A program made the translations under genes and the position numbers. Positions 2,074 to 23,828 of a stretch of DNA of 64,000 nucleotides are shown here, piece by piece. This DNA is from Rubrivivax sp. (GTDB taxonomy: Bacteria; Pseudomonadota; Gammaproteobacteria; Burkholderiales; Burkholderiaceae_C): NCBI GenBank assembly GCA_044225625.1, contig JBGAII010000003.1, forward strand, positions 11,234 through 75,233, given 5' to 3'. The notes beneath the pieces are model-generated. The model saw only the letters and a program-made list of their open reading frames with translations, was not told the DNA's origin and ran no database searches. Each line of letters starts with the position of its first letter. Within the stretch, counting starts at the first letter, position 1.

Positions 2074-2514
2074 TCACAGGCCGGCCACCGCCTGCTTGAC
2101 ACGCTGGTACGTGCCGCAGACACACAGGTTCTTCACCTCCGACGCGATCTCCGCGCCGTGGTGGCCCGCCTTCATCGCGCAGGCGGTGGACATCAGCATG
2201 CCGCTCTGGCAGTAGCCGCACTGCGGCACCTGGTTCGCGATCCAGGCCTTCTGCGCGGGGTGGCTGCGGTCGGGCGACAGGCCCTCGATGGTGACGATCT
2301 GCTTGCCGGCGGCCGAGGACACGTCGAGCACGCAGGCGTGTTCCGGCTGCCCGTCCATCATCACCGTGCAGGCGCCGCAGACCTCGATGCCGCAGCCGTA
2401 CTTGGTGCCCGTGAGGTTCAGCACGTCGCGCAGCACCCACAGCAGCGGCATGTCGGCGCGGCTGACTTCGACGACATGGCTCTTTCCGTTGACGTTCAGG
2501 GTGTAGCTGGGCAT
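2074..2514 (-). CDS. (2Fe-2S)-binding small subunit of an aldehyde/isoquinoline oxidoreductase (IorA-like).
   Basis: Within ORF 2074..2658, the internal Met at residue 49 starts MPSYTLNVNGKSHVV. The protein has the CGxGxCGAC and QCGYCxxG 2Fe-2S motifs. An AGGA RBS lies upstream of the ATG at 2514. Confidence 0.85.
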   Translation of the reverse strand: MPSYTLNVNGKSHVVEVSRADMPLLWVLRDVLNLTGTKYGCGIEVCGACTVMMDGQPEHACVLDVSSAAGKQIVTIEGLSPDRSHPAQKAWIANQVPQCGYCQSGMLMSTACAMKAGHHGAEIASEVKNLCVCGTYQRVKQAVAGL

Positions 2515-2554
2515 GAAGGCTCCTGAGGGAAGTGGTGTCTCCTCATAATGTGCA

Positions 2555-2608
2555 GAACGCACATTTGAAGTGGTGACCACTTGTTGCCGTCGGCAACGGC
2601 AGCGGACA
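2555..2608. promoter_or_regulatory. Three short inverted repeats in the iorAB upstream region: ATGTGC-N5-GCACAT, AAGTGGTGACCACTT and GTTGCCGTCGGCAAC.
   Basis: Palindromes read directly in the intergenic sequence between the iorA start (2514) and the divergent gene at 2847. Confidence 0.3.
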
Positions 2609-2846
2609 GGCCTGCACGGGGGAGCATTTCGCCCGGTCGCGCTTACAAACGGATGCACTTCAGCGGCATGACACCGCGGCCCGGCCCGTTAGCGTATGTG
2701 CATGCAGCCCATTTCCAACGAGGTCGCCGCCGGCGCGGTCGTTCGATGCCCCGGCCCGCCCGCCATGCACCGGCCCGCCGCGCAGCACCTCATCAGACCC
2801 GTGCCCAGGGTCGGCGCACCGACGCCGCGCTCGGTAGCATGAACGC

Positions 2847-3746: not shown

Positions 3747-4972
3747 CGCGCATCCGTTTCGACCGGCTCGGCGGATTCGCCGGCCTGCGCAGCGCCCTGC
3801 TCCGCATGCTGCTCGCCCTGACCCTGGCCGGCTGCGGCGGCGGTGCGGGTCTTGCGGGCGGCGACGGCGGCTCCGGCGGCGTGGGCAGCGGCGGCACCGG
3901 CACCTTCGCGGTCGGGCCGATCAGTGGCTATGGCTCGATCCTGGTCAACGGCATTCGCTACGACCTCGGCCAGCTGAGTGCAGCGCCGCGCGACGACGAC
4001 GACGGTGAACGTGCCGTCGCGACACTGCAGCTGGGCACGGTGGTTCGCGTCGAAGCCGGGCCGATCGACTTCGGTGCCAGCCCGCCGCGTGCGGTGGCCC
4101 GGACGGTGCGCGTCAGCAGCGAGGTGGTGGGCCCGGTCGAGTCCGTGGTCGACGACGCCGCCGGCCGCACGCTGCGCGTCGCAGGGCAGACCGTGCGCAT
4201 CCAGGCAGGCACCACCGTGCTCGATGAACGTCTGTCCGCCGGCGCACCGGCGCCCGGCGACTGGATCGAGGTCTACGGTGCCATCGACGGCGCGGTGTCA
4301 CCGGCACGCATCGTGGCCACGCGGATCGAGCCGCATGCGGCCGATGGCGCGCGGGTGCGCGGCACCGTCACCGACATCGGCACATCGGCCTTGCGCATCG
4401 GCAGCGGCGTCTACGGCTTCGGCGGCGGCACGCCGCCCGCGGGCGCGGCGATGGGCAGCCTGCTGCAGTTGCGCCTGCAAGGCAGCGCCGGCGAAGGCTG
4501 GCAGGTGGCCACCGTGGCCGATGCGCCGACGGCGCCGGCCGAGGCGGCGGCCGCCCATGTCGAGGGACGGGTGACGAGCATCGTTTCGTCCGACCGCTTC
4601 GTGGTCGATGACCTCGTCGTGGATGCCGGCGGTCTGTCGACCGCCGGGCTGACCCTCGGCCGCAGGGTCGTGGTGGAAGGCCCGATCCGCGCCGGTGTAC
4701 TGCACGCCGAGTCGCTGCAGTTCAAGAGCGACGACGACAGTCCCGGGCAGGCGGAGCCCTACGAGTTCCACGGCACCATCGCCACCGCCGACACGGTGGC
4801 TGCGACCTTCAGCCTGAGCGGCCGCAGTGAACTGTTCCGTCTGGGCCCCGGCACGCGCTATGAAGGCGGTGGTGCCGCCAGAGCGGTCGCGGGCGTACGA
4901 CTGGAGATGCGGGGCACGCTCAACGCCGACGGCCGCAGCGTCGACGTGGTCTTCGTCCACTTCGAGGACTAG
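3743..4972 (+). CDS. Lipoprotein with a Gly-rich linker and repeated beta-rich domains (DUF5666-like).
   Basis: Internal Met (MTRIRFDRLGG...) preceded by an AGGACG RBS. Lipobox LTLAGC. Shows the repeated V..V.G.V..V motif organisation. The listed ORF start at 3569 is an upstream GTG extension. Confidence 0.6.
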   Translation: MTRIRFDRLGGFAGLRSALLRMLLALTLAGCGGGAGLAGGDGGSGGVGSGGTGTFAVGPISGYGSILVNGIRYDLGQLSAAPRDDDDGERAVATLQLGTVVRVEAGPIDFGASPPRAVARTVRVSSEVVGPVESVVDDAAGRTLRVAGQTVRIQAGTTVLDERLSAGAPAPGDWIEVYGAIDGAVSPARIVATRIEPHAADGARVRGTVTDIGTSALRIGSGVYGFGGGTPPAGAAMGSLLQLRLQGSAGEGWQVATVADAPTAPAEAAAAHVEGRVTSIVSSDRFVVDDLVVDAGGLSTAGLTLGRRVVVEGPIRAGVLHAESLQFKSDDDSPGQAEPYEFHGTIATADTVAATFSLSGRSELFRLGPGTRYEGGGAARAVAGVRLEMRGTLNADGRSVDVVFVHFED

Positions 4973-4993
4973 GGCCGGCGGCCGCAGCGCGCT

Positions 4994-6199
<1,206 letters not shown>

Positions 6200-6286
6200 G
6201 CGGGCTCCTCTGCTGGTCTGAGAATCTGCGGCGGATGTTCCACGCGCCGCGCGGCATGCGCAAGCTCCTTGGCGACAGGGCTGTCC

Positions 6287-8017
6287 TCAGCGCGACAGCG
6301 CTGCGTCGGGCGCGCCGGGCAGGTCGCCGCGGCGAACGCCCTCTGCCAGCGCGGCACGCGTGATCTTTCCCGATTCGGTCTTCGGCAGCTCCGGCAACAG
6401 GTGGAAGGCCACCGGACACTTGTAGGCCGCGAGCCGCTCGCGGCAATGGCGCTGCAGTGCCTGCGGGTCGAAGTTCACGCCATCGCCAACCGACAGGAAT
6501 GCCAGCACGGTCTCGCCTCGATAGGCATCCGCCGCACCCACCACCGCCACCTCGCGCACGCCCGGATAGTCATACAGCACGTCCTCGACCTCGCGCGGCC
6601 AGACCTTGAAGCCCGATGCGCAGATCATGTCCTTCTTGCGGTCGACGAGATAGAACCATCCGGCCTCGTCGCGAAAGCCCACGTCGCCGGTATGCATCCA
6701 TCCGCCCGCCAGCGCCTCGGCGCTCTCCTGCGGCTTGCGCCAATACCCGGCCATCACGGCTGGCCCACGCACCAGCAGTTCGCCCGCCTGCCCCACAGGC
6801 AGAGGCAGGCCGTCGTCGCCGACGACGATGGCATCGACGCCCGAAACCGGCAGCCCGATCGACAGCGCACCCGATTGCGGATCCACCGGGATCGGACCCT
6901 CGGCCGGCGCCAGGTGGCTGGGCGCGCACAACTCGGTCATGCCGTAGGAGCTGCGAATCGATCGACCCATGCGCTGCTCGAACGCATTGACGACTGCGGG
7001 CGCGATCGGCGCGCCACCGGAGTACAGGTGGTGAAAGCTCTCGAAGTGGGCACGCGAGGCCTGCGGTCGGCTCATCAGCGCAATGAACGCGGTGATCGCA
7101 CCGATGATGAAGGTGGGCCGGTGTTCGATGAAGGCGTCCAGCGCGACGTCGGGCTGGAAGCGATAACCGAGGATCTGACTCGCGCCGGCGGCGAAGGCCG
7201 TCACCAGCTGCAGCTCGAAGCCGGTCACGTGGAACAGCGGCGCCAGGCCGAACAGCCGCGACGCGCCGTTCAAGCCGAAGTGGTCCACCGCGATGCGCGC
7301 ATTGAAGACGAGGCTGCGGTGCGTCAGCATGGCGCCCTTGGGCACGCCGGTGGTACCCGAGGTGTAGAGCAGCACGGCCACATCGTCGGCCCGCGGCGCT
7401 GCAGCGACGAAGGACGGATCGACCGGCCCCTGGAGCAGCGCCGAAAGGGAGTCGGCCACCGGCGGAACGGGTTCGGCCGGCGGTGGCAGGACACGTGCGT
7501 CGTCGCGCGACTGCCCCGCGCGCGGCGAACTCCAGAGCACACACGGCGGCGGGCTCAGGGGCGCCACCGCCTCGCGCACCGCGTCCCATTGATCGTCGTG
7601 GCAGAACACTGCCGACGGCGTGCAGTCGGCGAAGAGCCGCACCAGCTCCGGCCTGCGATACATCGGGTTCAGCACCACGGCGATCGCCGCCAGCTTCCAC
7701 GCCGCCAGCGTCGCCACCACGAAGGCCGGCGTGTTCTGCATCACGATGGCGACGCGATCACCGCGCCCAACGCCGCGCCCGCGAAGTGCTGCTGCCGTCA
7801 GGTCGCTGAGGCGGTCAAGCTCCCGATAGTCGATGCGGCGGTCGAAATACGTCAGCGCGGCGGCCTCATGCGGCACGGCTCGGAAGAGATCGAGCGCCGT
7901 GCACTCTTCGGGCAGCGGACGCTGCAACTGCACGCCGGGTACGGCCCGCCAGGGGCATTCGGTCGCCGCCGTCTCGCGCGCGTTCGCTACGGCAGAAGGC
8001 AGGATCGTGTCGCTCAT
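6287..8017 (-). CDS. AMP-dependent synthetase/ligase (acyl-CoA synthetase family).
   Basis: Internal Met MSDTILPSAV within ORF 6287..8623. Carries the AMP-binding motifs LLYTSGTTGVPKGAML, YGMTE and GWxHTGD. Its start overlaps the GntR stop as ATGA. Confidence 0.85.
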   Translation of the reverse strand: MSDTILPSAVANARETAATECPWRAVPGVQLQRPLPEECTALDLFRAVPHEAAALTYFDRRIDYRELDRLSDLTAAALRGRGVGRGDRVAIVMQNTPAFVVATLAAWKLAAIAVVLNPMYRRPELVRLFADCTPSAVFCHDDQWDAVREAVAPLSPPPCVLWSSPRAGQSRDDARVLPPPAEPVPPVADSLSALLQGPVDPSFVAAAPRADDVAVLLYTSGTTGVPKGAMLTHRSLVFNARIAVDHFGLNGASRLFGLAPLFHVTGFELQLVTAFAAGASQILGYRFQPDVALDAFIEHRPTFIIGAITAFIALMSRPQASRAHFESFHHLYSGGAPIAPAVVNAFEQRMGRSIRSSYGMTELCAPSHLAPAEGPIPVDPQSGALSIGLPVSGVDAIVVGDDGLPLPVGQAGELLVRGPAVMAGYWRKPQESAEALAGGWMHTGDVGFRDEAGWFYLVDRKKDMICASGFKVWPREVEDVLYDYPGVREVAVVGAADAYRGETVLAFLSVGDGVNFDPQALQRHCRERLAAYKCPVAFHLLPELPKTESGKITRAALAEGVRRGDLPGAPDAALSR

Positions 8018-8787
8018 AGACGCCCGGCATCGCTCAATGGGGGCAGCTTGTTCGCCGTGCTGCCCCAGCCCGCAGCCGGATCGGCAGCCATCTTCTCGAT
8101 CAGCAGCCGCGTGCGGCGGATGTGCAGGTGCACGATGCTGCGCGCACCCTCGGCGTCGCGGGCGCGCAGCATCGCCATCAGCATCAGGTGCTGCGGATCG
8201 GAGAACGGCAACCCATCCTTTGCCAGCGAGTCCTTGACGAACCAGCGCCGGAAGTGCTGCGTGTTGTTCCAGAAGCGCTCCACCATGCGGCGCAGTTGCG
8301 GCAATGGTGCGCGCGAGTAGGTCTTCAGGTGGAACTGCCGGTCCAGGCTGATGTATTCCTGGATGCTGTCGCAGCTCTCCAGACGCTGCACCATCTCGTC
8401 CAGCGCAGCGATGTCTTCGTCGCTCAGATGCGGCACGCTTTCGGCAATGGCCAGAGGCTCCAGCACCTCGCGGATCTTGTAGACCTCGATCGACTCCTGC
8501 GACGTCACGTCGGCAATCCATGCGCCGCGGTTCGGTGCCAGCACCACCAGTCCCTCGGTCTGCAGCTGGCGAAGCGCCTCGCGCACCGGAATGCGGCTGG
8601 CACCGAACTTTGCCGCGAGCCACTCCTGGCCCACCCGCATGCCGGGCAGCATCTCGCCGTCGATCACCGCGCGCCGGATCTCGTCCGCGACGCGCATGCT
8701 CAGCAGGTGAACCTCGTCGTCGGCCGCGACCGGCGCGGCGCTGTTCTTCGGTGGTGGCGTGGTATTCGGCATGGCGCGTCGGTACAT
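8014..8787 (-). CDS. GntR family transcriptional regulator (FadR/FCD subfamily).
   Basis: N-terminal wHTH (EMLPGMRVGQEWLAAKFGASRIPVREALRQLQTEGLV) followed by an FCD-type C-terminal domain. The start is MYRRAMPNTT (8787), or alternatively MPNTT (8772). Confidence 0.85.
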   Translation of the reverse strand: MYRRAMPNTTPPPKNSAAPVAADDEVHLLSMRVADEIRRAVIDGEMLPGMRVGQEWLAAKFGASRIPVREALRQLQTEGLVVLAPNRGAWIADVTSQESIEVYKIREVLEPLAIAESVPHLSDEDIAALDEMVQRLESCDSIQEYISLDRQFHLKTYSRAPLPQLRRMVERFWNNTQHFRRWFVKDSLAKDGLPFSDPQHLMLMAMLRARDAEGARSIVHLHIRRTRLLIEKMAADPAAGWGSTANKLPPLSDAGRL

Positions 8788-8789
8788 CG

Positions 8790-10301
8790 TCAGTGGATGG
8801 CGGCGTACATGATCTTCTCCTGCGTGGCGTCCGCCGCCGACATCTCTTCGACGATACGCCCGCCGCGTGCCACCAGCACCCGGTCGGCGATGGCCAGGAT
8901 CTCCGGCAGGTACGAGGAGATGACCATCACCGCCTTGCCCTGCGCCGCCAGCTCGCGGATGGCCTTGTGGATCTGCGGAATCGCGCTGACGTCGACACCA
9001 CGCGTCGGCTCGTCGAAGATCACCACCGACGGCTCCTGCGCCAGCGACTTGGCCACCACCACCTTCTGCTGGTTGCCGCCGGAGTATTCGATGATGCGCA
9101 GGCTGCGCTTCAGGGCCGAGATCGACAGCGCCTCGATCCAGCGGTCGGCGATGCGCTTCATCTCGCGCCGCGAGTACCACCAGCGCCGCACGCGCGGCGA
9201 TGCCAGGTAGCCGAGGTAGATGTTCTCGTCCACCGTCATGGTCTCGAAGAAGCCATCGACCTTGCGGTCCTCGGTGATATAGGCGATGCCGTCGCGCACT
9301 GCCTGGCGCGGCACGCGGTAGCGCACGGGCTTGCCGCGCAGGTAGATCATTCCGCCGCGCAGGAAGTTGCGCTTGCGCGCGCCGCAGACCACCTGCGCCG
9401 CCTCGCTGCGGCCGGCGCCCACCAAGCCGAACACACCCACCACTTCGCCGGCGAAGAGCGAGAACGACATGTTCTTGACGATGCTGCCCATCGTCACGTT
9501 CTCCACCGACAGCAGCTTCTCGCCGCGGCGCTGCGCCTCGCCCCCGACGGTCCGCTGCGGCGCGTACTCCACCTCGCGGCCGATCATCATGCGCACCAGG
9601 TCGTCGCGCGAGACCTCGCGTGAGGCCACCGTCCCGATGCGCCGGCCGTCGCGCAGCACGGTGATGCGGTCGGCCAGCTCCAGCGCCTCTTCCAGCGCAT
9701 GCGAGATGAAGATGATGCCGGCCCCGGCTTCGCGCAGCGTGTTCATCAGGTGGAACAGGTGCTGGGTCTCTTCCGGCGTCAGCGAAGCCGTCGGTTCGTC
9801 GAAGATGAAGATGCGCGCGTTCTGACGCACCGCGCGCACGATCTCCACCATCTGCCGTTTGGCGGTGCCAAGATTCTCCACCAGCGTCAATGCGTCGACG
9901 TTGAAGTTCAGCGACTGCAGCGACTGCGTGGCCGCGATGTTGATCTTGCTGAAGCGAGTGATGAAGCTCTCGTTGCCCAGCTCGAGGTTCTGCGCCACCG
10001 TCATCGACGGCACCAGACTGGACTCCTGATAGACCATCGCCACGCCGCCGCGCAGCGCCTCTCGCGGCGACGCGAAGGAGACCTCGCGGCCGTCGATCAG
10101 GTACTGGCCGTCACTGAGCCTGATCGCACCCGCGATGGCCTTGCTCAGCGTGGACTTGCCTGCACCGTTCTCGCCCAGCAGCGCATGAATCTCACCTGCG
10201 CGCAGGTCGAAGTCGACCTTCTCGATCGCGTGCAGGCCGCCATAGACCTTGCTTCCCTGAACGATCTGCAGCAGCGGCCGCTGCGCCTCTGCGGTGCTCA
10301 T
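8790..10301 (-). CDS. Sugar-type ABC transporter ATP-binding protein with duplicated ATPase domains (RbsA/MglA/XylG-like).
   Basis: Starts MSTAEAQRPLLQIVQGS and has a GGGGAGGGA RBS. Two Walker A sites (GENGAGKST and GLVGAGRS) and an LSGGNQQK signature. Start overlaps the upstream stop as ATGA. Confidence 0.9.
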   Translation of the reverse strand: MSTAEAQRPLLQIVQGSKVYGGLHAIEKVDFDLRAGEIHALLGENGAGKSTLSKAIAGAIRLSDGQYLIDGREVSFASPREALRGGVAMVYQESSLVPSMTVAQNLELGNESFITRFSKINIAATQSLQSLNFNVDALTLVENLGTAKRQMVEIVRAVRQNARIFIFDEPTASLTPEETQHLFHLMNTLREAGAGIIFISHALEEALELADRITVLRDGRRIGTVASREVSRDDLVRMMIGREVEYAPQRTVGGEAQRRGEKLLSVENVTMGSIVKNMSFSLFAGEVVGVFGLVGAGRSEAAQVVCGARKRNFLRGGMIYLRGKPVRYRVPRQAVRDGIAYITEDRKVDGFFETMTVDENIYLGYLASPRVRRWWYSRREMKRIADRWIEALSISALKRSLRIIEYSGGNQQKVVVAKSLAQEPSVVIFDEPTRGVDVSAIPQIHKAIRELAAQGKAVMVISSYLPEILAIADRVLVARGGRIVEEMSAADATQEKIMYAAIH

Positions 10302-11422
10302 CGTGCTCCCTCCCCCGCGACCCCATCGGGCGGCAATTCCACCAGCAGGCCGCGGCCCTTGGCCAAGGCGAGCACGCGCGCGCCGAGACTGCGCACCGCG
10401 GTCACACCGTGAACGCGGCCTTCGACCCGGCTGTGCAGGCTGTACAGCACCTGCGCTTCGGCGTCGAGCCTTGCCACCAGACCATACGAACGGGGTGGCG
10501 CCCAAGGCTTCTGGATGCCGAGCTTCTTGATGCGACCGATCTGCGTCGGCTCGCGGTAGTCGAAGCGGCCTTCCAGGCTCGGCCCGATCCACAGCTCGCG
10601 CGGCACACGCGCCATCATCGATTCGCAGAAGGCGCGTTCGCGCAGCACGAACTCGATCAGCTGCGTGCGCATGCCGAAGAAGGCCATCCAGTAGCCGCCG
10701 CGGGCATCGGCCGTGATGCGCGACGGATAACCGGCGTAGTTGCGCACGATCGTGCGCGCCGCGCCGCCGGCGGCCGGCAGCGCCGACAGGCGGTGCGACC
10801 ACGATTCGGTGACCAGCAGTTCGCGGCCATCGATCGAGGGCGCCACGCCGGCCGGCCAGTCGAGCCCGTCGGCGACCACGCGTGCCTGCTCCAGCCGCGG
10901 GTCGCAGGCAATCAACCGGCCCGAAGGCCGCCGCGCCTGCATCAGGTCGGGCAGCCAGTCTTCGGGCCGGTTGTGGCGCGAGCCTTCGCAGACATAGATG
11001 GTGCCGTCCTGCGCCACGGCCACCGCGGTGGGACAGGTGATCGGCACACCGCCGGCTTCGGCCAGCGTGCCCACCACCGTGCCCTCGGGCGACAGTGCCA
11101 CCAGCCCCAGGCCGGAAACGGCGGCCAGCAGCCGGCCGTCGCGGCTGCGCGTCAGCCCCGTCACTGCGCCGCGCAGCCGCGCGAAGACGCTGCGCTGCTC
11201 GAAGTCCGGCCCGGTGCAGCGCAGCACGCGGTCCTCGCTCGACACGTACAGCACGCCATCGTCGCCGCCGACCAGGTCGTCGGGAGCTTCGATCACCGGC
11301 CCTAGCACGCGCGACGCATCGAGCCGGCTGTTCGGCGAGAACGGGCCATCGAGCATCGGGATCACGTGCTGCTCGCGATTGGGGAACAGCACGCGGTCGA
11401 TGACATCGCGGATCAGTGCCAT
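10298..11422 (-). CDS. Strictosidine synthase-like / SMP-30 / gluconolactonase-type beta-propeller protein.
   Basis: Starts MALIRDVIDRVLFPN with a GGGAGGGG RBS. Has motifs similar to the C-terminal domain of the upstream permease fusion (GRLIACDP..., DGTIYV..., YWMAFF). ATGA overlaps at both ends. Confidence 0.75.
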   Translation of the reverse strand: MALIRDVIDRVLFPNREQHVIPMLDGPFSPNSRLDASRVLGPVIEAPDDLVGGDDGVLYVSSEDRVLRCTGPDFEQRSVFARLRGAVTGLTRSRDGRLLAAVSGLGLVALSPEGTVVGTLAEAGGVPITCPTAVAVAQDGTIYVCEGSRHNRPEDWLPDLMQARRPSGRLIACDPRLEQARVVADGLDWPAGVAPSIDGRELLVTESWSHRLSALPAAGGAARTIVRNYAGYPSRITADARGGYWMAFFGMRTQLIEFVLRERAFCESMMARVPRELWIGPSLEGRFDYREPTQIGRIKKLGIQKPWAPPRSYGLVARLDAEAQVLYSLHSRVEGRVHGVTAVRSLGARVLALAKGRGLLVELPPDGVAGEGAR

Positions 11423-13539
11423 CAGCGTGCCCCTCCCCAGTAGGAGGTCCAGCCCTGCCAGTTCGGGTCGGCACCGGGCAGGCGCACGCGGCCGATGCGG
11501 TTGTTCTCCAGGCCGCCGATGTAGAGCCAACCCTTGTGCTCGCGCACCGAGGTGATGGTCGGGTGGGAACGGCCGCCCGGGTCCCACAGCGACTCGCTGA
11601 CGACCCCCCGGTCGTCGAACTTGATGATGCAGCCGTAGTTGATGCCGGGGCAGAGCCATTCGTCCGGCGGGATCTGCTTGACCATGCGGATGCGGAAGCC
11701 CGGGTCGGCCATCGCCAGGTCATACACCGGCGACCGCAGGCCCACCAGGGCCAGCCAGTAGCTGCCGTCCGACGCGCGGTTGATGTTGTCGCAGTAGCCC
11801 GGCAGATTGTCGATCAGCACCTCGCACTGGCCGGCCTTGTCGCCCTCGATCCAGTAGCGGTAGACGCGGCACAGCCAGGTGCTGGCCCACAGCACCGAGC
11901 GGCCGTCGTGCGCCACGCACACGCCGTTCGGGAAGGTCAGGCCCTTCAGCACCGTGCGCGTGACGCCGGTCTCCGGATCGTGGCAGATCAGCCGGCCATT
12001 GCCGCGGCCCTCGAAACCGTCGAGCGCCCAGTCGGCGAGTTCGTAGCGTGTGGTCGCCTCGCTGAAGTAGATCTTGCCGTCCGGCGCGATGTCCAGATCG
12101 TCGGCCAGATACAGACGAGAGTCGTCCTTCAGTCGCGTGCGCGTGCGTGTGGTGCGGTCGGTGACCTTGAACACGGTCCTGTCCGGACGCACGCCATAGA
12201 CGCCCATGCCCGCGACGCAGGCAATGAGGTTCTCGTCACGGTCGAAGGCCAGGCCCAGCGGCCGTCCGCCGATGCGTGCGAACTCCTCGCGCACGGTGTA
12301 GTCGGGCGCCAGGAAACGCACGATCGAGCCATTGCGGGTGACGGTGTAGAGGTGATCTCGACGGTCGAGGATGATGTCCTCGGGGCCCTCGATCTGCCCG
12401 AGCGCGATCGCCTCGGCATCGCGCAGCCGGTCGTTCTCGGCGAAGGGCGTGCCGCTGTCGCGCGCGATGGAAGCCGGTGGCTCGAAGTCCACCCAGCTCG
12501 GCACGACGTAGACCTTCTGCTGGACCTTGCCCTTGTTCTTGACCCACTTGACATTGAAGCCCACGGCCACCAGCAACACGCTGCCGATCAGCGCCGTCGT
12601 CACGTTGCCGGACACGCCCATGCGCACCAGGCCGCTGACGAGCATGAAGATGATGGCCGCGCCCATCATCGCGCGCGCGATCGTGCCGCGGCCGCCTGCC
12701 AGGCTGATGCCGCCCAGCACCACCGCGGCCAGCGCGTTGATCTCCCAGCCCATGCCGGTGTCGGTGCCGGCGCTGTTCTGGCGCGCAGCGTAGAAGATGC
12801 CGGCCAGCGCCGCCAGCGCGCCGGAGATGACGTAGGCCGAGAACAGCGCACGCTTGACGTTGACGCCGGCATGGCGCGCCGCCTTGCGGCTGGAACCCAC
12901 GGCCATGATGTGCAGGCCCGGGCGCACGCGGGTGAGGAAGAAGTGGGCCACCACCGCAACCAGCAGCAGCGCGCAGACGTTGGCGGGCACGCCCAGCAGC
13001 GTGCCGGCGCCGAGGAAGTCCCACACCGGACTGTCGCTGCTGACACTGGCGAGTTCCTCCGTGTGCGCAGCGGTGAGCTTGTTGTACAGGGCACGCAGCA
13101 CGATCAGCGTGACCAGCGTGGTCAGGAACGGCCGCGTCTTGCCGTAGGCGATGAGCGCGCCGTTGAGTGCGCCGACCAGCGAGCCGAAGACCACCACGAG
13201 CAGCACCATCAGCGGCAGCGGCAGGCCCAGCACCAGGTGCAGGTACAGCGCGAGGAAATTGGCCATGGCGAACACCGACCCCACCGACAGGTCGATGCCG
13301 CCGGACAGCACGGCCACGGCCATGGCCACGGCCACCATCGCCTGTTCGGCAAAACTCAGCGAGAGCTGGCGCAGGTTGGTCAGGTCGGTATAGCCGGGGA
13401 CGAGGAACGCGAAGCTCAGGAAGACTGCCACCGTCAACACGAACGGGATGATCGGCTCCATCCACCGCTTTTCGAGCAGTTCACCGAGGAAGACTTGCGG
13501 CGAGTGCCGGTGCCACAGTCGCAGCAGGTTGGTCGTCAT
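11422..13539 (-). CDS. Fusion protein: sugar ABC transporter permease (RbsC-like, N-terminal, about 330 aa) joined to a strictosidine synthase-like / SMP-30 beta-propeller domain (C-terminal, about 370 aa).
   Basis: A single uninterrupted 2.2 kb ORF. The N-terminus (MTTNLLRLWHRHSPQVFLGELLEKRWMEPIIPFVL...) has multiple TM helices typical of ribose/xylose permeases. A K-rich linker (NVKWVKNKGKVQQK) follows, then DRRDHLYTVTRNGSIVRF...GRLICHDPETG...GSYWLALVG. Start is taken at ATG 13539; an alternative GTG at 13620 lies directly after the SBP stop. Confidence 0.75.
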   Translation of the reverse strand: MTTNLLRLWHRHSPQVFLGELLEKRWMEPIIPFVLTVAVFLSFAFLVPGYTDLTNLRQLSLSFAEQAMVAVAMAVAVLSGGIDLSVGSVFAMANFLALYLHLVLGLPLPLMVLLVVVFGSLVGALNGALIAYGKTRPFLTTLVTLIVLRALYNKLTAAHTEELASVSSDSPVWDFLGAGTLLGVPANVCALLLVAVVAHFFLTRVRPGLHIMAVGSSRKAARHAGVNVKRALFSAYVISGALAALAGIFYAARQNSAGTDTGMGWEINALAAVVLGGISLAGGRGTIARAMMGAAIIFMLVSGLVRMGVSGNVTTALIGSVLLVAVGFNVKWVKNKGKVQQKVYVVPSWVDFEPPASIARDSGTPFAENDRLRDAEAIALGQIEGPEDIILDRRDHLYTVTRNGSIVRFLAPDYTVREEFARIGGRPLGLAFDRDENLIACVAGMGVYGVRPDRTVFKVTDRTTRTRTRLKDDSRLYLADDLDIAPDGKIYFSEATTRYELADWALDGFEGRGNGRLICHDPETGVTRTVLKGLTFPNGVCVAHDGRSVLWASTWLCRVYRYWIEGDKAGQCEVLIDNLPGYCDNINRASDGSYWLALVGLRSPVYDLAMADPGFRIRMVKQIPPDEWLCPGINYGCIIKFDDRGVVSESLWDPGGRSHPTITSVREHKGWLYIGGLENNRIGRVRLPGADPNWQGWTSYWGGAR

Positions 13540-13626
13540 CGTGCGGGTGGAATCTGAGGATGAGATGGACAGGGCAGCGCACGGCTGCCGCCGCTCGGGC
13601 GGCAGCCGGTGGCCAGTCACGGGCCG

Positions 13627-14661
13627 CTATTTGGATGCGGTCTTCGGCACGGTGAAGCAGTAGGCCCGGTCCGCCGCACTGCGCACCCAATACGGCGTGG
13701 TGTAGTAGGCGGTGCGCTTGGTGCCCGGCTTGTCGCCGCTCTGGATCAGCGTCAGCACCGCGTTGACGATGGCCTCGCCCTGGGTGTCCGCGCGATACGA
13801 CAGGTTGGTGTGGAACAGTCCCTGCTCGAGCATGTCGCAGTCGGCCGGCTGGCCGTCGCTGGCGACCCAGACCTTCACCTTGCCCGCCTTTCCGGCGGCC
13901 TTGATCGCCTGCGCCGCGCCGGCGGCATGCGGCCCCCACACGCTCAGCACGCCGCACAGGTCGGGGTTCTGCTGCAGCACCGTGGTGGTGATCTCGCCGG
14001 CCTTGTTGGCGTCCCAGTTGGTGGGCTGCGAGGACACGACCTTGATCGACTTGTCGGCGTTGAAGATGTCCATCGCGCCGCGCTTCATGTCCAGCGAATA
14101 GGCCGCGGTGGCCTCACCTTCGAGGATCGAGATCTTGCCCGAACCCTTGCCGCCACCGCACTCGGCGACGATGTCCTTGGCAAGGCGGCGGCCGAGGTCA
14201 CGCGGATCGACGCCGACGTAGGCATCGGTCAGCGTGTTCGACGCCATGTTCACCTGAATGACGTAGATGCCGGCGTCCATCGCCCGCTTGAGTTCGCGCG
14301 CCAGCAACGTGACATTGGGGTTCTGCACCACCAGCACGTCGGGCTTGGAATTGATCAGTTCGCTCACTGCCTGCAGTTGCACGTCGGACTTGAAGTTGGC
14401 ATCCCGGACGACGAACTTGATGCCGTAGTCGTCGAAGTGCGTCTTCATGTTGCGCGTCCACTCCGACTCGAGCACGCCCATCCACACCGGCGCCCAGGCC
14501 ACGGTCTTGCCCTTGACCGCCTTGTCGAAGTTGGCGCGCAGTTCCTCGCGCGGTTCGGCCGCCGACACCGCCATGGAGGCTGCGAGCGCGGCCAACGAGG
14601 CCGTGGCAACGCTCATACGTCGCAGCGCGACCTGGATCCGGTTCGATGGGGTCTTCTTCAT
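13627..14661 (-). CDS. Sugar ABC transporter periplasmic substrate-binding protein (RbsB/LacI-fold type).
   Basis: Internal Met MKKTPSNRIQVALRRMSVATASLAALAASMAVSA is a signal peptide. An AGGAGA RBS lies upstream. The body has type-I PBP features. Confidence 0.85.
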   Translation of the reverse strand: MKKTPSNRIQVALRRMSVATASLAALAASMAVSAAEPREELRANFDKAVKGKTVAWAPVWMGVLESEWTRNMKTHFDDYGIKFVVRDANFKSDVQLQAVSELINSKPDVLVVQNPNVTLLARELKRAMDAGIYVIQVNMASNTLTDAYVGVDPRDLGRRLAKDIVAECGGGKGSGKISILEGEATAAYSLDMKRGAMDIFNADKSIKVVSSQPTNWDANKAGEITTTVLQQNPDLCGVLSVWGPHAAGAAQAIKAAGKAGKVKVWVASDGQPADCDMLEQGLFHTNLSYRADTQGEAIVNAVLTLIQSGDKPGTKRTAYYTTPYWVRSAADRAYCFTVPKTASK

Positions 14662-14737
14662 TGCAGTCTCCTTGGGTGGGGGTGCCGAATGCGGCACCCG
14701 CTGTGGCGCCTCGGCGGAAATGGCGCTGGCGGGTCCG

Positions 14738-15724
14738 TCAGTCGCCTTGTTTGGATGTTTCCTCGTCGCGCGGGTAGAGCACGGCGTCGAGCACAATGGC
14801 CACCAGCAGCACGATGCCCTTGACGATGTTCTGCGTCTGCACGTCCATGTCGAGGATCGTCATGCCGTTCAGCAGCACGCCGATCAGCAGCGTGCCGGCA
14901 ATGACGCTCATCACGTTGCCGCGCCCGCCGGTGAGGCTGACGCCGCCGAGCACGACAACCATGATGACGTCGAAGATCAGCGTCGACTCGACCACCTGCA
15001 GGTGCATCAGCGAGGTCTGCGCGATCATCACCACGCCGCCGACGTAGCCGACACCGGCGCACAGCGCGTACTGCAGCATCGTCAGCGGGCGGGTTGGCAG
15101 GCCAGCCAGGCGCGCGGCCTCTGGGTTGTCGCCGTGTGCGTAGATGAAGCGGCCGAGCACGGTGCGCGACAGCAGCACGTGCACGCCGATGGCCGCCGCA
15201 GCAAACACCAGCAGCGGCGCCGGCACGCCGCCGGCGACATTGCCGCCCAGCCTCAGGAAATCTTCGTGCCCCGGCCCGAGGTTGACCACGAAGTGCTGGA
15301 CGGCGGTGGAGCGAATGATGCCCAGCACGGCCAGGCCCGACGCCAGCGTCGTCAACAGCGGCGGCATCTCTATCACCGAGATCAGCCAGCCGTTGAGCAG
15401 CCCGACGGTGACCGCCAGCAGCAACCCCACCGCCAGCGCCAGCGGGGTGGCCCAGCCGTCGTTCATCAACAGGATGGCGATCGCCGTGGCGGCGGCCATC
15501 GACGACACCTGCGACAGGTCGAGGCCGCGCGCAATGACGACGATGGCCATGCCCAGTGCCAGCACGCCCAGGATCGAGATGTTGCGGGCCATCGCGAACA
15601 GGTTGCCGAGCCTCAGGAAGCCGGGCAACAACAGGCTGAAGACCACGAACACCAGCACGCACAGGCCGAGCACAGCCATCGCCTGGGTGGGTCTGCGTAC
15701 CGTGTGGGCGGCGCCCCGTGCCAT
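14738..15724 (-). CDS. Sugar ABC transporter permease (RbsC/branched-monosaccharide family).
   Basis: Starts MARGAAHTVRRPTQAMAVLGL, preceded by an AGGAGA RBS. Highly hydrophobic and multi-spanning. First gene of the minus-strand operon. Confidence 0.85.
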   Translation of the reverse strand: MARGAAHTVRRPTQAMAVLGLCVLVFVVFSLLLPGFLRLGNLFAMARNISILGVLALGMAIVVIARGLDLSQVSSMAAATAIAILLMNDGWATPLALAVGLLLAVTVGLLNGWLISVIEMPPLLTTLASGLAVLGIIRSTAVQHFVVNLGPGHEDFLRLGGNVAGGVPAPLLVFAAAAIGVHVLLSRTVLGRFIYAHGDNPEAARLAGLPTRPLTMLQYALCAGVGYVGGVVMIAQTSLMHLQVVESTLIFDVIMVVVLGGVSLTGGRGNVMSVIAGTLLIGVLLNGMTILDMDVQTQNIVKGIVLLVAIVLDAVLYPRDEETSKQGD

Positions 15725-15764
15725 TCGTCTTCTCCTGCTTCTCGTGGCCCGCCTGTCGGCTGGC

Positions 15765-15898
15765 AATGGATCGATTCTTCAACCACATGGATCCACAAGT
15801 CAATCATTGGATCCATAACATCTCGTAAACACCTATAAATTCCCAATACACGGCCTAAACTCGCAACTATGGATCCAAACAAGTCAAAAAGGATCCGC
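15765..15898. promoter_or_regulatory. AT-richer divergent promoter region carrying an array of the perfect palindrome TGGATCCA.
   Basis: Copies at 15789, 15809 and 15870, plus GGATCC at 15891 and a degenerate TGGATCGA at 15767. Spacings are 20, 61 and 21 bp. The region lies between the ABC operon start (15724, minus) and the AI-2E transporter (16008, plus). Confidence 0.4.
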
Positions 15899-16007
15899 AG
15901 TGATGTGCCGAGACGGCATTCAGCGAGCCGTGTAGGACAAGGCCGATGTCATCTGACGGCGAAGTCCGCCAAGTCGTTGCGCCGCCGATCCCGATACTTC
16001 CACCACG

Positions 16008-17189
16008 ATGCAAGCTCAACTTCATGCCCAGGCGGACGGGGCCGCTGACGCCGCCGCCGGGCCGACCGCGGCGTCAGCGGCTGCCGAACCGCCTCATTTG
16101 CCCCTCGATCTGCGCAGCGCTTCGCTGATGCTGATCGCGTTGATGGCGGGCCTGTACATGCTGCGCTGGGCCGGCGCGGTGATCATTCCGGTGCTGCTCG
16201 CGGTGATGGTCAGCTATGCACTGTCGCCGCTGCTCGAGCGCCTGCAGCGCGCGGGCATGGCACGCACCGCGGCCGCAGCAGCGCTGTTGCTGGCGGTCAC
16301 CGGCGGTGTCGGCTCGATGGTCTACTCGCTCAGCGACGATGCCACGGCCATGATCGAATCGCTGCCCCAGGCCGCGCAGAAGCTGCGCAGTGCGCTGCGC
16401 GCCCCGCGTGGCGAGTCGGAAGGACCGATCGCCAAGGTGCAGCGCGCCGCCGAGAAGATCGAGCAGGCGGCCGAGGTCAGCACCGTGTCGGCGCCGCAGC
16501 CCGTCAAGGGCGTGACCCGCGTGCAGGTGGAGCCACCGAAATTCAGCGTCCGTTCGTACCTGTGGAGCGGCACGCTAGGGCTGGCCGGCCTGCTCGGGCA
16601 GGCGGTCGTGGTGCTGTTCCTCGCCTTCTTCCTGCTGGCGTCCGGCGATGGCTTCCGGCGCAAGCTGGTCAAGATCGTTGGGCCGAGACTGAGCCGCAAG
16701 AAGATCACCGTGCAGATGCTGGACGAGATCGATGCGCAGATCCGCCGCTACCTGCTGGTGCAGATCGGCACCAGTGTGCTGGTCGGCCTCGTCACCTGGG
16801 TCGTGCTGTCGAGCTTCGGCCTCGAGCGTGCGGCGGTGTGGGGCGTGGTCGCGGCGGTGCTGAACCTGGTGCCCTACGTCGGCGCGCTCGTCACCGCCGG
16901 TGCGCTGGCGCTGGTCGCCTTCCTGCAGTTCGGCACGCCGGGCATGGCCCTGGGCGTCGGCGCGGCCTCATTGGCCATCAACACGCTCGAGGGCAACCTG
17001 CTCACGCCGTGGCTCACCGGCCGGGCGTCGCGCATGAACCCGGTGCTGATCTTCGTCGGCGTGCTGGCCTTCGGCTGGCTGTGGGGCCTGTGGGGCCTGT
17101 TGCTCGGCGCACCGCTGCTGATGGCCGCGAAGGTGGTGTGCGATCACGTGGAGAACCTGAAGCCGGTCGGCGAGCTGATGAGTGCGTGA
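16008..17189 (+). CDS. AI-2E family transporter (PerM/YhhT/TqsA-like, UPF0118).
   Basis: Eight-TM membrane protein with the characteristic C-terminal half (LVPYVGALVTAGALALVAFLQFG...GNLLTP...NPVLIFVGVLAFGWLWGLWGLLLGAPLL). The N-terminal 40 aa are Ala/Gln low-complexity, so the true start may be the later Met at about 16128. Confidence 0.75.
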   Translation: MQAQLHAQADGAADAAAGPTAASAAAEPPHLPLDLRSASLMLIALMAGLYMLRWAGAVIIPVLLAVMVSYALSPLLERLQRAGMARTAAAAALLLAVTGGVGSMVYSLSDDATAMIESLPQAAQKLRSALRAPRGESEGPIAKVQRAAEKIEQAAEVSTVSAPQPVKGVTRVQVEPPKFSVRSYLWSGTLGLAGLLGQAVVVLFLAFFLLASGDGFRRKLVKIVGPRLSRKKITVQMLDEIDAQIRRYLLVQIGTSVLVGLVTWVVLSSFGLERAAVWGVVAAVLNLVPYVGALVTAGALALVAFLQFGTPGMALGVGAASLAINTLEGNLLTPWLTGRASRMNPVLIFVGVLAFGWLWGLWGLLLGAPLLMAAKVVCDHVENLKPVGELMSA

Positions 17190-21937: not shown

Positions 21938-22483
21938 TCAGCGCGTGCGCGCCGCGGCGGCCTTCTTTCGCGTCGCACGTGCCGTGCTGCCCCAGGTGTC
22001 GGACGCCAGCTTGCCGCTGGCCACCCACAGCCATTCGATGCGGCTGTAGGTGAACGACACCTCTTCGTACTCCGTCCAGCGCAGCAGCGTGGCATCGCGC
22101 GTGTCCGGCATGACGAAGCGGATCTGGCACACGCGCGCGTCGCCCAGCCGCACCGTGTAGTACTGCTGCTCCACGCCGCTGGCAGAGCCGACCGTGCCCG
22201 TGCCCTTGGGCGTCCAGAACTGCAGCTCCCACTCGGTGGCCAGCTCGTTGCCGGCCAGCATCTGGTACAGCGGCACCGAGGCCGCATCCACCGGCTTGGT
22301 GACGACGAAGGGTTGATGCTGGCGCTTGCCGCTGGCCTGGCCGGTGGCGGCAGCGAACGGCTGGCTCAGCGCATGGCTTGCGGCCACCACCAGGATCTTG
22401 CCTTCGCGCCCTTTCTGCACGACCGAGCCCTTGATGTCGCCTTGCTGCTGGCCCTTGAGTTTGAGATAGGCGTTCAGTGCCAT
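21938..22483 (-). CDS. hcp: Type VI secretion system tube protein Hcp (TssD), present as an orphan copy.
   Basis: Starts MALNAYLKLKGQQQGDIKGSVVQKGREGKILVVAASHALSQPF, the typical Hcp1 N-terminus. An AGGGGGA RBS lies upstream. It has a short K/R-rich C-terminal tail. No other tss genes occur in the window. Confidence 0.85.
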   Translation of the reverse strand: MALNAYLKLKGQQQGDIKGSVVQKGREGKILVVAASHALSQPFAAATGQASGKRQHQPFVVTKPVDAASVPLYQMLAGNELATEWELQFWTPKGTGTVGSASGVEQQYYTVRLGDARVCQIRFVMPDTRDATLLRWTEYEEVSFTYSRIEWLWVASGKLASDTWGSTARATRKKAAAARTR

Positions 22484-22715
22484 GGGATCCCCCTGCGGTT
22501 TATGGTGCGCGCAATGTAGGCCTGCCACCGGGTGGTGTCGAGGACGGCGTCGAGCCCCCGCGCGGGCCGCAGGACCGCCGTGGCCGGAACCGCACCGGGT
22601 TGCGCCAAATCAACGCCTGCGGCGGCGGCACCTCAAGGCCGCCGGCAAAGCGCCGAAGTAGACGGTGCGACGTCCGGAAGGAGCGCCGCCCTTTCCCACT
22701 TCACGGACGCCCACG

Positions 22716-23828
22716 ATGTCTCTCCCCGACCGTTTCCGCCGCACCGCGCGGCCCCTGCTGGTAGCAGCCATGGCCGCGATCGCCGCCGCCGCACCCACGG
22801 CGCAGGCCTGCACCAGCTTCATGCTGACGGCCAAGGACGGCAGCCGCCTCTATGCCCGCACGATGGAGTTCGGCGTGGACATGAAGGCCCAGGTGACGGT
22901 GCTGCCGCGTGGCCTGGCGATGGCCGGCACGCTGCCCAACAACCAGAAGGGCAAGCAGTGGACCAGCCGCTATGCCGCGCTGGGCATGAACGGCTTCAAC
23001 CTGCCGATCCTGGTGGACGGCTTCAACGAGAAGGGCCTGGCCGGCGGCATGCTGTTCTTCCCCGGCTATGCCCAACTGGTGCCAGCCGGGCAGGCTCCAC
23101 AGGCCAAGGCGCTGGCCTCGTGGGAGTTCCTGGCCTGGGTGCTGACCAACTACGCCAGCGTGGCCGAGGTCAAGGCGGCCATCGCGGCCGGCGAGATCGT
23201 CATCGTCGACACCGTGCAGACCGACCTGGGCATTTCGCCGCCGCTGCACTACACGCTGCACGACCGCAGCGGCGCGTCGGTGGTGATCGAGCCGGTGGGC
23301 GGCAAGCTGGTGATGACCGACAACCCGTACACGGTGCTGACCAACGCGCCGGACATCGGCTGGCACATGACCAACCTGCGCAACTACAGCACACTGACGC
23401 CCGATTTCCCGCCGCCGCTGAAGGTCATGGGCCAGACGCTGGTGCCCTTCAGCACCGGCTCGGGCATGCGCGGCCTGCCAGGCAGCCAGAGCTCGCCGGC
23501 GCGCTATGTGCAGGCGGTGGCCTACGTGGCCACGCTGCCGCCGCCGGCCGATGCCTGGGGCAACGTGCGCAGCGCCGAGCACATCCTGAACCACTTCGAC
23601 CTGTCCAACGGCTCGGCTGGCGAGTACAGCGGCATCAAGGGCCAGGGCGGCTTCGAGCTGACCTACTGGACGGCCTTCTCCGACCTGGCCACCAACCGCT
23701 TCTACTTCAAGACCTACGACAACCAGCAGATGCGCTACGTGGACCTGAAGGACTTCGATCTGGACGCCAAGGCGCCGCGCTACCTGCCCACGACGCAGCC
23801 CTACCAGCCGCAGCGCCTGCAGCCGTGA
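22716..23828 (+). CDS. Choloylglycine hydrolase family protein (linear amide C-N hydrolase, Ntn-hydrolase fold; PVA/BSH-like), predicted secreted.
   Basis: Starts MSLPDRFRRTARPLLVAAMAAIAAAAPTAQA followed by CTSFML, i.e. a signal peptide then an N-terminal Cys nucleophile. Confidence 0.75.
   Translation: MSLPDRFRRTARPLLVAAMAAIAAAAPTAQACTSFMLTAKDGSRLYARTMEFGVDMKAQVTVLPRGLAMAGTLPNNQKGKQWTSRYAALGMNGFNLPILVDGFNEKGLAGGMLFFPGYAQLVPAGQAPQAKALASWEFLAWVLTNYASVAEVKAAIAAGEIVIVDTVQTDLGISPPLHYTLHDRSGASVVIEPVGGKLVMTDNPYTVLTNAPDIGWHMTNLRNYSTLTPDFPPPLKVMGQTLVPFSTGSGMRGLPGSQSSPARYVQAVAYVATLPPPADAWGNVRSAEHILNHFDLSNGSAGEYSGIKGQGGFELTYWTAFSDLATNRFYFKTYDNQQMRYVDLKDFDLDAKAPRYLPTTQPYQPQRLQP

Follow-up and report, generated by a model that had tools for sequence, protein, structure and literature searches.

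The closest described relatives of the transport system analysed here are the CUT2 (ribose-type) ATP-binding cassette (ABC) importers with two permeases, such as RbsABC, YtfQRT-YjfF and LsrACDB of Escherichia coli. We studied a stretch of 64,000 nucleotides of Rubrivivax sp. (assembly GCA_044225625.1, contig JBGAII010000003.1, positions 11,234 to 75,233 of the forward strand; hereafter the window), in which one operon encodes an importer with the hallmarks of this family: a substrate-binding protein (SBP) of the Peripla_BP_4 type, BPD_transp_2 permeases that would form a heterodimeric membrane part, and one ATPase chain of ~500 residues with two nucleotide-binding domains (NBDs). Unlike the described importers, one permease of this system carries a 340-residue, putatively enzymatic domain that is predicted to be cytoplasmic, and a second propeller gene precedes the ATPase gene. 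Moreover, the neighbouring genes encode acyl-CoA enzymes and not sugar enzymes, and no component scores near an equivalog cut-off.

Six-bladed propellers are known as Ca-dependent lactonases and esterases (Rpa3624, PON1, Drp35, SMP30, XC5397 and DFPase). The domain fused to the permease shares their fold and the E/N(D)/N/D ligand pattern, but its identity to them is low (14-16% in Foldseek alignments), and the known enzymes are soluble or lipoprotein-bound and have no transporter fusion. The plant protein TGW6 and strictosidine synthase have the Pfam domains SSL_N and Str_synth in common with the fused domain and are its top matches in sequence and fold. Such strictosidine-synthase-like (SSL) proteins of plants belong to the secretory pathway, whereas here the propeller is a domain of a transporter. 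The qsd operon of Rhodococcus erythropolis is said to encode the lactonase QsdA (an amidohydrolase-fold, phosphotriesterase-like protein), the acyl-CoA ligase QsdC and the TetR-type regulator QsdR; it shares with the present locus the logic of a lactonase, a CoA ligase and a regulator for gamma-lactone assimilation, but has no dedicated ABC importer and no fusion. A chemical step is tied to translocation, and transport thereby made irreversible, in peptidase-containing ABC exporters, in group translocation by the phosphotransferase system and in vectorial acylation by FadL/FadD. The module is conceptually like these systems, which, however, are exporters, or phosphorylate, or CoA-esterify. Finally, the lva pathway of Pseudomonas putida and mammalian catabolism by ACAD10/ACAD11 share with the window the R/H/R phosphate site and the catalytic Asp of an acyl-CoA dehydrogenase-fold enzyme, and relatives of the operon carry adjoining genes for an acyl-CoA synthetase (ACS), a short-chain dehydrogenase/reductase (SDR), an APH-type kinase and this dehydrogenase. 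Unlike those systems, the window operon lacks kinase and SDR genes, and the available portion of the report on them lists no ABC importer or lactonase (PMC12440821).

A literature search, made mostly outside subscription journals so that absence is not proven, returned no description of the fusion or of an SBP-dependent importer with a tethered cytoplasmic hydrolase. Public annotations name the fusion only as 'ABC transporter permease', 'ribose transport system permease' or 'SMP-30/gluconolactonase/LRE family protein'. The parts come from known families (CUT2 importer, N6P-type propeller hydrolases, ACAD10/11/LvaC enzymes, FCD regulator), and it is their combination that appears to be undescribed.

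With evenly balanced confidence, we read the operon as a conserved eight-gene catabolic module for the import of a lactone or ester that is opened where it leaves the importer on the cytoplasmic side, activated with CoA and passed on to beta-oxidation. The core would be a CUT2-type importer with two different permeases, one of which bears a tethered Ca-dependent hydrolase of the SSL/paraoxonase-like type. The ligand of the periplasmic SBP would be a small, neutral cyclic ester, in the first place a gamma-lactone or enol-lactone and less likely another ester; being furanose-like in shape, a gamma-lactone would suit a binding protein of the ribose family. The transporter would carry the lactone to the cytoplasmic face, where the tethered hydrolase would open the ring to a charged 4-hydroxy (or 4-oxo) acid that could not diffuse back out. 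The acid (or its CoA ester) would induce the operon through the GntR/FCD regulator and be activated by the ACS, and after 4-O-phosphorylation the ACAD10/11/LvaC-type enzyme would turn it into an enoyl-CoA that enters beta-oxidation. In this genome the reactions of the kinase (and SDR) would have to come from outside the operon. In chemical terms, 4-hydroxy acids are open gamma-lactones and 4-oxo acids open enol-lactones, and an SDR can reduce 4-oxo CoA esters. The sequences directly show the architecture, its conservation, the residue patterns and the family assignments; the substrate class, the hydrolytic activity, the trapping logic and the role of a second, free propeller are what we infer from them.

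Since the window has a G+C content of ~70%, raw lists of open reading frames (ORFs) are crowded with shadow frames, and genes were defined by translation together with Pfam and NCBIfam. Eight genes lie in a row on the minus strand, listed here in the order of transcription, with the sub-regions of the fusion and one spacer:

14738-15724, minus strand: permease 1 (328 aa), RbsC/AraH-type BPD_transp_2 (Pfam 1.7e-34), no additional domain
13627-14664, minus strand: binding protein (345 aa), Peripla_BP_4 (Pfam 1.4e-46)
11422-13539, minus strand: permease::SSL fusion (705 aa), a single unbroken ORF with BPD_transp_2 followed by SSL_N, Str_synth and SGL
12523-13539, minus strand: fusion residues 1-339, permease domain (Pfam BPD_transp_2 6.9e-36), ten predicted transmembrane helices
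12445-12522, minus strand: fusion residues 340-365, tether, lysine-rich, low-confidence in the model, containing KWVKNKGKVQQK
11422-12444, minus strand: fusion residues 366-705, propeller (Pfam Str_synth 5e-20, SSL_N 1e-15, SGL 3e-10)
10298-11425, minus strand: free SSL paralog (375 aa), predicted cytoplasmic
8790-10301, minus strand: tandem-NBD ABC ATPase (503 aa), RbsA/AraG type, Pfam ABC_tran in two stretches
8014-8787, minus strand: GntR regulator with FCD effector domain, second possible start at 8772
6287-8017, minus strand: acyl-CoA synthetase, an AMP-binding ligase (576 aa)
6200-6286, minus strand: spacer of 87 nt between the ACS gene and the following dehydrogenase gene
4994-6199, minus strand: ACAD10/ACAD11/LvaC-type acyl-CoA dehydrogenase-fold enzyme (401 aa)

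The gene content, order and strand proposed in an earlier, sequence-only reading of this DNA agree with translation and Pfam. Its upstream end of the operon, 15766, is the TTG that opens the longest possible ORF of permease 1; the ATG at 15724 instead fits the 328-aa call in metagenome records. The sequence also contains the junctions that it had described: ATGA overlaps at fusion/SSL, SSL/ATPase and GntR/ACS, a TGA-CG-ATG junction that sets the ATPase stop 2 nt from the GntR start, and the 87 nt between the ACS and dehydrogenase genes. Gene callers also place the GntR start 15 nt downstream, at the second ATG, giving a protein of 252 aa. The statement that all genes are translationally coupled was too strong, as the permease 1/SBP and SBP/fusion gaps measure 73 nt and 87 nt.

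An assembly artefact or a frameshift can be ruled out as the source of the permease::SSL fusion. An identical 705-aa protein is encoded on 18 contigs, and the three loci displayed stem from three separate ENA metagenome assemblies with the same eight-gene context. Over 120 clusters (at 90% identity) with at least 72% identity to the fusion all have the same four Pfam domains, and related fusions occur at 68 loci in species genomes, so that the single ORF seen in the earlier reading is genuine. In three metagenome-assembled genomes (MAGs) derived from nanopore reads (L072, L073 and L075) the fusion gene is split into two ORFs, most simply by sequencing frameshifts.

The permease part of the AlphaFold2 model has ten helices (27-46, 53-78, 86-103, 108-132, 137-158, 186-205, 228-254, 263-275, 286-306 and 311-339). 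A basic loop at ~206-227, with six helices before and four after it, corresponds to the NBD-coupling loop of the permease family. The N-terminus is basic, and the tenth helix continues into KWVKNKGKVQQK, with five lysines directly after the helix and the K positions conserved. About 30 residues lead from this helix to the propeller, and the tether is of low model confidence (predicted local distance difference test score, pLDDT, <50 for residues 330-351). With ten transmembrane helices and the N-terminus inside, the N-terminus, the coupling loop and the C-terminus would all lie on the cytoplasmic side, and the propeller is accordingly predicted to be cytoplasmic, as the sequence-only reading had proposed from the K-rich linker. 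Searched against PDB sequences, the permease domain gave zero matches; since no solved structure of the permease family was found by sequence, this topology rests on the model and on the charge pattern.

The same kind of evidence bears on the possibility that the propeller lies on the periplasmic side and hydrolyses the lactone there, so that the SBP would capture the acid. The topology of the fusion is a prediction, and some proteins of the SSL family, e.g. animal APMAP, are extracytoplasmic. The even number of helices, which puts the N-terminus, coupling loop and C-terminus on one side, and the five lysines after the tenth helix speak against this arrangement, as does the lack of a signal peptide in the co-encoded paralog, and we consider it highly improbable.

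The fused domain itself is a six-bladed propeller, the strands of which span residues 376-686 in the AlphaFold2 model. Foldseek gives target-normalised template modelling scores of 0.65-0.77 against strictosidine synthase (STR), TGW6, DFPase, Rpa3624 and Drp35, and PON1 is also among the structural matches. In HMMER comparisons the best solved relative is rice TGW6 (2.7e-20), followed by strictosidine synthases. TGW6 hydrolyses the glucose ester of indole-3-acetic acid (IAA), and its residues E59/N167/N226/N272 have been equated with the residues that bind Ca in DFPase, gluconolactonase XC5397 and Drp35 (Akabane et al., PMC10958001). At these positions the HMMER alignment places E (IEGPED), D (LADDLD), N (FPNG) and N preceded by D (CDN) in the fusion; the equivalence of E59 is taken from the GPE motif, which lies outside any significant alignment segment. 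All Ca-ligand positions and the adjacent Asp are invariant in 65/65 sequences. In the lactonase Rpa3624 of Rhodopseudomonas palustris, Ca is bound by the equivalent residues E15/N123/N172/D229, on which hydrolysis depends, and this enzyme also converts gamma-valerolactone (GVL) to 4-hydroxyvalerate (PMC9843451). Judged by this comparison, the fused domain is a probable Ca-dependent lactone/ester hydrolase, and the invariant ligand set fits the ester or lactone hydrolase role that had been suggested for it. A Pictet-Spenglerase activity like that of STR was also considered. The H-F-E of GEHFEQ in 6n5v aligns (HMMER) with T-I-T of an invariant HPTITS in the fused domain. The catalytic residue of STR is Glu309 (with His307); since the catalytic Glu is replaced by Thr in the fusion, this function is excluded.

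The relationship with TGW6 raises the question whether the module takes up acyl-sugar esters. The SBP would then read the glycosyl part (e.g. of plant 1-O-acyl-glucose esters), the propeller would cleave the ester as TGW6 does, the acid would pass to the ACS and the dehydrogenase, and the sugar would enter central metabolism. Such a substrate would agree with the IAA-glucose hydrolase as top solved sequence match, with the CUT2 sugar type of the SBP, permeases and ATPase, and with the many hosts that are plant- or soil-associated. Distant modules, moreover, adjoin an RpiR/SIS regulator, and regulators of this type usually sense sugar derivatives. Against it, genes of sugar catabolism (for sugar kinases, isomerases or others) do not recur in the neighbourhood, the partners that do recur (ACS, ACAD10/11-type enzyme, 3-hydroxyacyl-CoA dehydrogenase, SDR and APH) point to 4-hydroxy or 4-oxo acids, and TGW6 differs from the fused domain in having a single acidic ligand instead of two, and no Ca. 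We therefore regard acyl-sugar uptake as unlikely. A classical sugar lactone, one of the substrates that had been thought plausible, is also less likely, because sugar-catabolic genes are not conserved nearby.

The dehydrogenase gives a more specific clue. In the PDB its matches are human and mouse ACAD11 (2wbi, 1.2e-141; 8v3u, 1.6e-140), the best classical acyl-CoA dehydrogenase reaching only 3e-44. Rashan et al. (PMC12440821) showed that ACAD10/11 and LvaC of bacteria use 4-phosphoacyl-CoA as substrate, the product of an APH-type kinase domain acting on 4-hydroxyacyl-CoA, and defined the family signature as the phosphate-site residues R626, H634 and R637 and the catalytic D753 (mouse ACAD11 numbering). 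The window enzyme carries the equivalents of all four residues, and among 40 such enzymes from related loci the R, H and R are kept in 40/40 and the D in 39/40, with a gap in the remaining one. By its sequence the window dehydrogenase is of the ACAD10/11/LvaC type, which suggests 4-hydroxy acids as intermediates and hence gamma-lactones as their source. This assignment, together with the co-occurrence of ACS, dehydrogenase and GntR genes (~67-89% of the flanked loci), strengthens the connection with CoA activation and beta-oxidation that the sequence-only reading had drawn. The enzyme is not, however, an ordinary beta-oxidation dehydrogenase: it requires a 4-phospho intermediate, and the kinase that makes this is absent from the window. 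The PDB matches of the ACS are generic and give no clue to its substrate.

Of the lva-type enzymes, only the CoA ligase and the dehydrogenase are present in the window operon, from which the SDR is absent as well. The closest relative (L076, its fusion 88% identical) has the gene order ATPase-GntR-ACS-SDR-APH-ACAD-FadB, so that all four lva enzyme types (those of the kinase LvaA, the dehydrogenase LvaC, the SDR LvaD and the CoA ligase LvaE) are attached to the transporter, and the APH of some loci matches the kinase domain of ACAD11 at 1e-83. A forest-soil contig (L077, 1-21032) contains two complete five-gene transporter modules, convergently oriented, which flank ACS-SDR-APH, a second GntR gene and the dehydrogenase gene. 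In the spacer at 6200-6286, where L076 has its SDR and APH genes, one frame resembles an APH C-terminus (PIGELAWRRAQEHLGAR*). The nucleotide similarity between spacer and kinase gene (z 2.3) is inside the range of shuffles and not significant; the resemblance is a hint that the spacer might be the scar of a deleted kinase gene.

For the distribution of the module, one genome per species was scanned for the fusion. The 68 loci found belong to Alpha-, Beta- and Gammaproteobacteria and Desulfobacterota (two MAGs in the Desulfobacterota). The closest named genome is that of Pseudacidovorax intermedius (86%); other hosts are many Bradyrhizobium, Rhodopseudomonas, Xanthobacteraceae, Roseiarcus, Chelatococcus, Hypericibacter, Oceanibacterium, Sneathiella, Castellaniella (~50%) and Alcanivorax. 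In an exhaustive, profile-free search, full-length relatives of the fusion reach down to ~40% identity, and by this sequence divergence the fusion is old. Neighbouring genes were predicted per locus with a codon-usage caller, which reproduced the deposited annotation of L004, and then clustered; greedy longest-ORF calling with single-linkage clustering of stop-to-stop ORFs was unsuited, yielding shadow ORFs and N-terminal over-extension at 70% GC. The core order permease 1 > SBP > fusion > free SSL > ATPase is unchanged in every readable locus, permease 1 being found in 65/69 loci. The median junction spacing is 2 nt for fusion/SSL and -4 nt for SSL/ATPase (~60 loci), and 71 and 115 nt for the first two junctions. 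Among 45 loci with enough flank, GntR/FCD genes occur in 40, ACAD genes in 31 and ACS genes in 30. Additional partners are a 3-hydroxyacyl-CoA dehydrogenase (15 loci), an SDR (several) and an APH-type kinase beside the ACAD gene (seven).

In Rhodopseudomonas telluris (L005, 389-6109) the module adjoins Tn7-like TniQ/TniB/transposase genes. The window proteins are 74-88% identical to alphaproteobacterial ones, yet the closest named genome is betaproteobacterial. The Tn7-like neighbours and the cross-class identity suggest horizontal spread of the module. In a version with 51% identity (L067, 14863-16145), genes for the alpha and beta subunits of a nitrile hydratase directly follow the ATPase gene, with an SDR gene upstream, a hint that this branch takes up another class of substrate.

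This pattern of conservation also allows a judgement on a salvage or repair role of the propeller. The importer would then bring in the free 4-hydroxy or 4-oxo acid, or an unrelated sugar, the propeller would re-open gamma-lactones arising spontaneously from 4-hydroxy acids or their CoA/AMP esters, and the tether would serve co-expression or localisation, with no mechanistic coupling to transport. FCD regulators typically sense carboxylates, 4-hydroxyacyl thioesters cyclise readily, and the ACS and the ACAD10/11-type enzyme are encoded in the same operon, all of which would suit such a role. The spontaneous interconversion of GVL and 4-hydroxyvalerate (PMC9843451) points the same way. Why a repair enzyme should be joined covalently to the permease, in at least 68 species and at identities as low as ~40%, is not obvious, however; this reading also leaves the translational coupling to the ATPase unexplained, and in distant lineages the five-gene core occurs without ACS and dehydrogenase. 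We consider it rather improbable, on a par with acyl-sugar uptake.

The free SSL paralog, the start of which overlaps the fusion stop (ATGA), has no signal peptide. It retains the propeller fold (model pLDDT 81, predicted template modelling score, pTM, 0.83), in agreement with Foldseek, but of the four metal ligands three are missing in 60/60 sequences, the aligned positions reading P-D/CPTAV/WPAG/YPSR. It thus differs from the fused domain and is not another lactonase like it. Its most conserved segment is an invariant 29-aa insertion at residues ~286-316 (EPTQIGRIKKLGIQKPWAPPRSYGL), which overlaps the region where the model is least confident (282-311, pLDDT <50); a loop that is conserved and yet seemingly disordered in the model would be typical of an interface element. 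The heterodimer of tethered and free propeller suggested in the sequence-only reading may be favoured, though only indirectly, by this loop and by the tight coupling of the fusion, SSL and ATPase genes across loci. From these sequence features the free paralog probably has no catalytic function and serves the tethered enzyme or the transporter as a lid, adaptor or regulator. The wider family includes tandem SSL-SSL two-propeller proteins and permease-ATPase single-chain fusions (P0222, P0174, P0193, P0256; P0157, P0166), a permease-permease fusion with two BPD_transp_2 stretches (P0187) and a protein of 863 aa in which an SSL domain lies behind an N-terminal region without Pfam match (P0200). 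The tandem SSL-SSL proteins may be read as a weak Rosetta-stone hint of propeller pairing.

Should neither propeller be an enzyme, both SSL domains might sense a ligand, or gate or regulate the transporter in the manner of trans-inhibition, without hydrolysis. Beta-propellers often serve as interaction platforms, the free paralog is strongly conserved despite its lost metal site, and TGW6 itself has no bound Ca. The four Ca-ligand positions and the adjacent Asp are, on the other hand, invariant in the 65 fused domains, as expected for an active enzyme, and the fold matches are N6P-type hydrolases and lyases, which makes a purely non-enzymatic role very unlikely.

Within the lactone/ester import reading, the tether may serve transport-coupled hydrolysis, i.e. 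a hydrolytic form of group translocation. A permeant lactone or ester would be passed from the translocation path to the tethered Ca-hydrolase and leave it as a trapped anion, while the degenerate paralog would dock via its invariant basic loop as a lid or adaptor linking catalysis to the ATPase cycle. We put this forward as a tentative and rather doubtful mechanism.

Several observations weigh against the import of a lactone or ester as set out above. An APH homologue was not found in the entire 64-kb window, and an APH kinase is present within 10 kb in only 7/68 genome loci, so that the majority of operons with the dehydrogenase gene, like the present one, are without the kinase. Versions of the core with ~50% identity (in Castellaniella and others) have no ACS or dehydrogenase gene nearby, their neighbours being an RpiR/SIS regulator, an SDR or a nitrile hydratase, and the five-gene core may serve more than one substrate class. 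TGW6, the closest solved relative of the propeller, cleaves an acyl-glucose ester and no lactone, and its crystals are without bound Ca. The full-length model of the fusion is of moderate quality (pLDDT 72.7, pTM 0.53) and uninformative on the docking site of the propeller. Finally, the SBP and the permeases are of the sugar type, and their ligand is not readable from the sequence, as all NCBIfam equivalog scores are far below cut-off. Permease 1 has AraH and RbsC as its best NCBIfam matches, both far under the equivalog cut-offs. The SBP has no NCBIfam equivalog and is only distantly related to solved structures, the nearest being an allose-binding protein (2e-19); it has a hydrophobic N-terminal segment resembling a signal peptide (AASMAVSAAEP), with a cut read by eye from the translation as AVSA|AEP. 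The ATPase matches the AraG, XylG and RbsA models at 1e-121 to 1e-137, with AraG (3.6e-137) under the equivalog cut-off.

Two elements outside the coding regions could take part in the expression of the operon:

15774-15803, minus strand: sigma-70-like promoter match TTGACT-18-AAGAAT, the sole such match in the region, just upstream of permease 1
13583-13607, minus strand: GC-rich perfect hairpin with an 11-bp stem and no T-run, within the 87-nt gap after the binding-protein gene

The AT-richer stretch at ~15770-15900 (minus strand) contains three TGGATCCA palindromes and two TTGACTTGT(N0-2)GGATCCAT repeats, one of these elements being situated between the -35 and -10 of the promoter-like site. 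From their sequence and position they are a candidate repressor operator. As an operator of the whole family the TGGATCCA palindromes were rejected: they recur in the nearest Burkholderiales loci only (L001, L010 and L019) and are missing from the alphaproteobacterial ones. The hairpin (-31.8 kcal/mol for the 52-nt context, z -2.1) is modest against the GC-rich background and may stabilise the mRNA or set the stoichiometry of the components; hairpins of this kind occur in other ABC operons. An Rfam scan of 4500-16500 returned zero RNA families.

Several other genes of the window are not common to other loci. A gene for an AI-2E-family transporter (16008-17189, plus strand) is divergent from the operon. 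Further away lie genes for a type VI secretion Hcp protein (21938-22528, minus strand) and a choloylglycine-hydrolase-family amidase (22665-23828, plus strand), and on the other side a [2Fe-2S] subunit (2074-2658, minus strand) with a molybdopterin oxidoreductase downstream.

As a rule, ABC importers only translocate their substrates. If the lactone/ester import reading is true, a conserved importer with a catabolic enzyme on the cytoplasmic end of its permease would represent a new route to the irreversible uptake of a permeant neutral compound. The module would also place the ACAD10/11 route for catabolising 4-hydroxy acids, which was defined only recently, in a concrete bacterial setting and tie it to dedicated uptake and ring opening. 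Lactones such as gamma-valerolactone are met as biomass solvents, flavour compounds, signalling molecules and products of lipid peroxidation, and a defined cassette for their uptake and hydrolysis would be useful for engineering lactone tolerance or utilisation.

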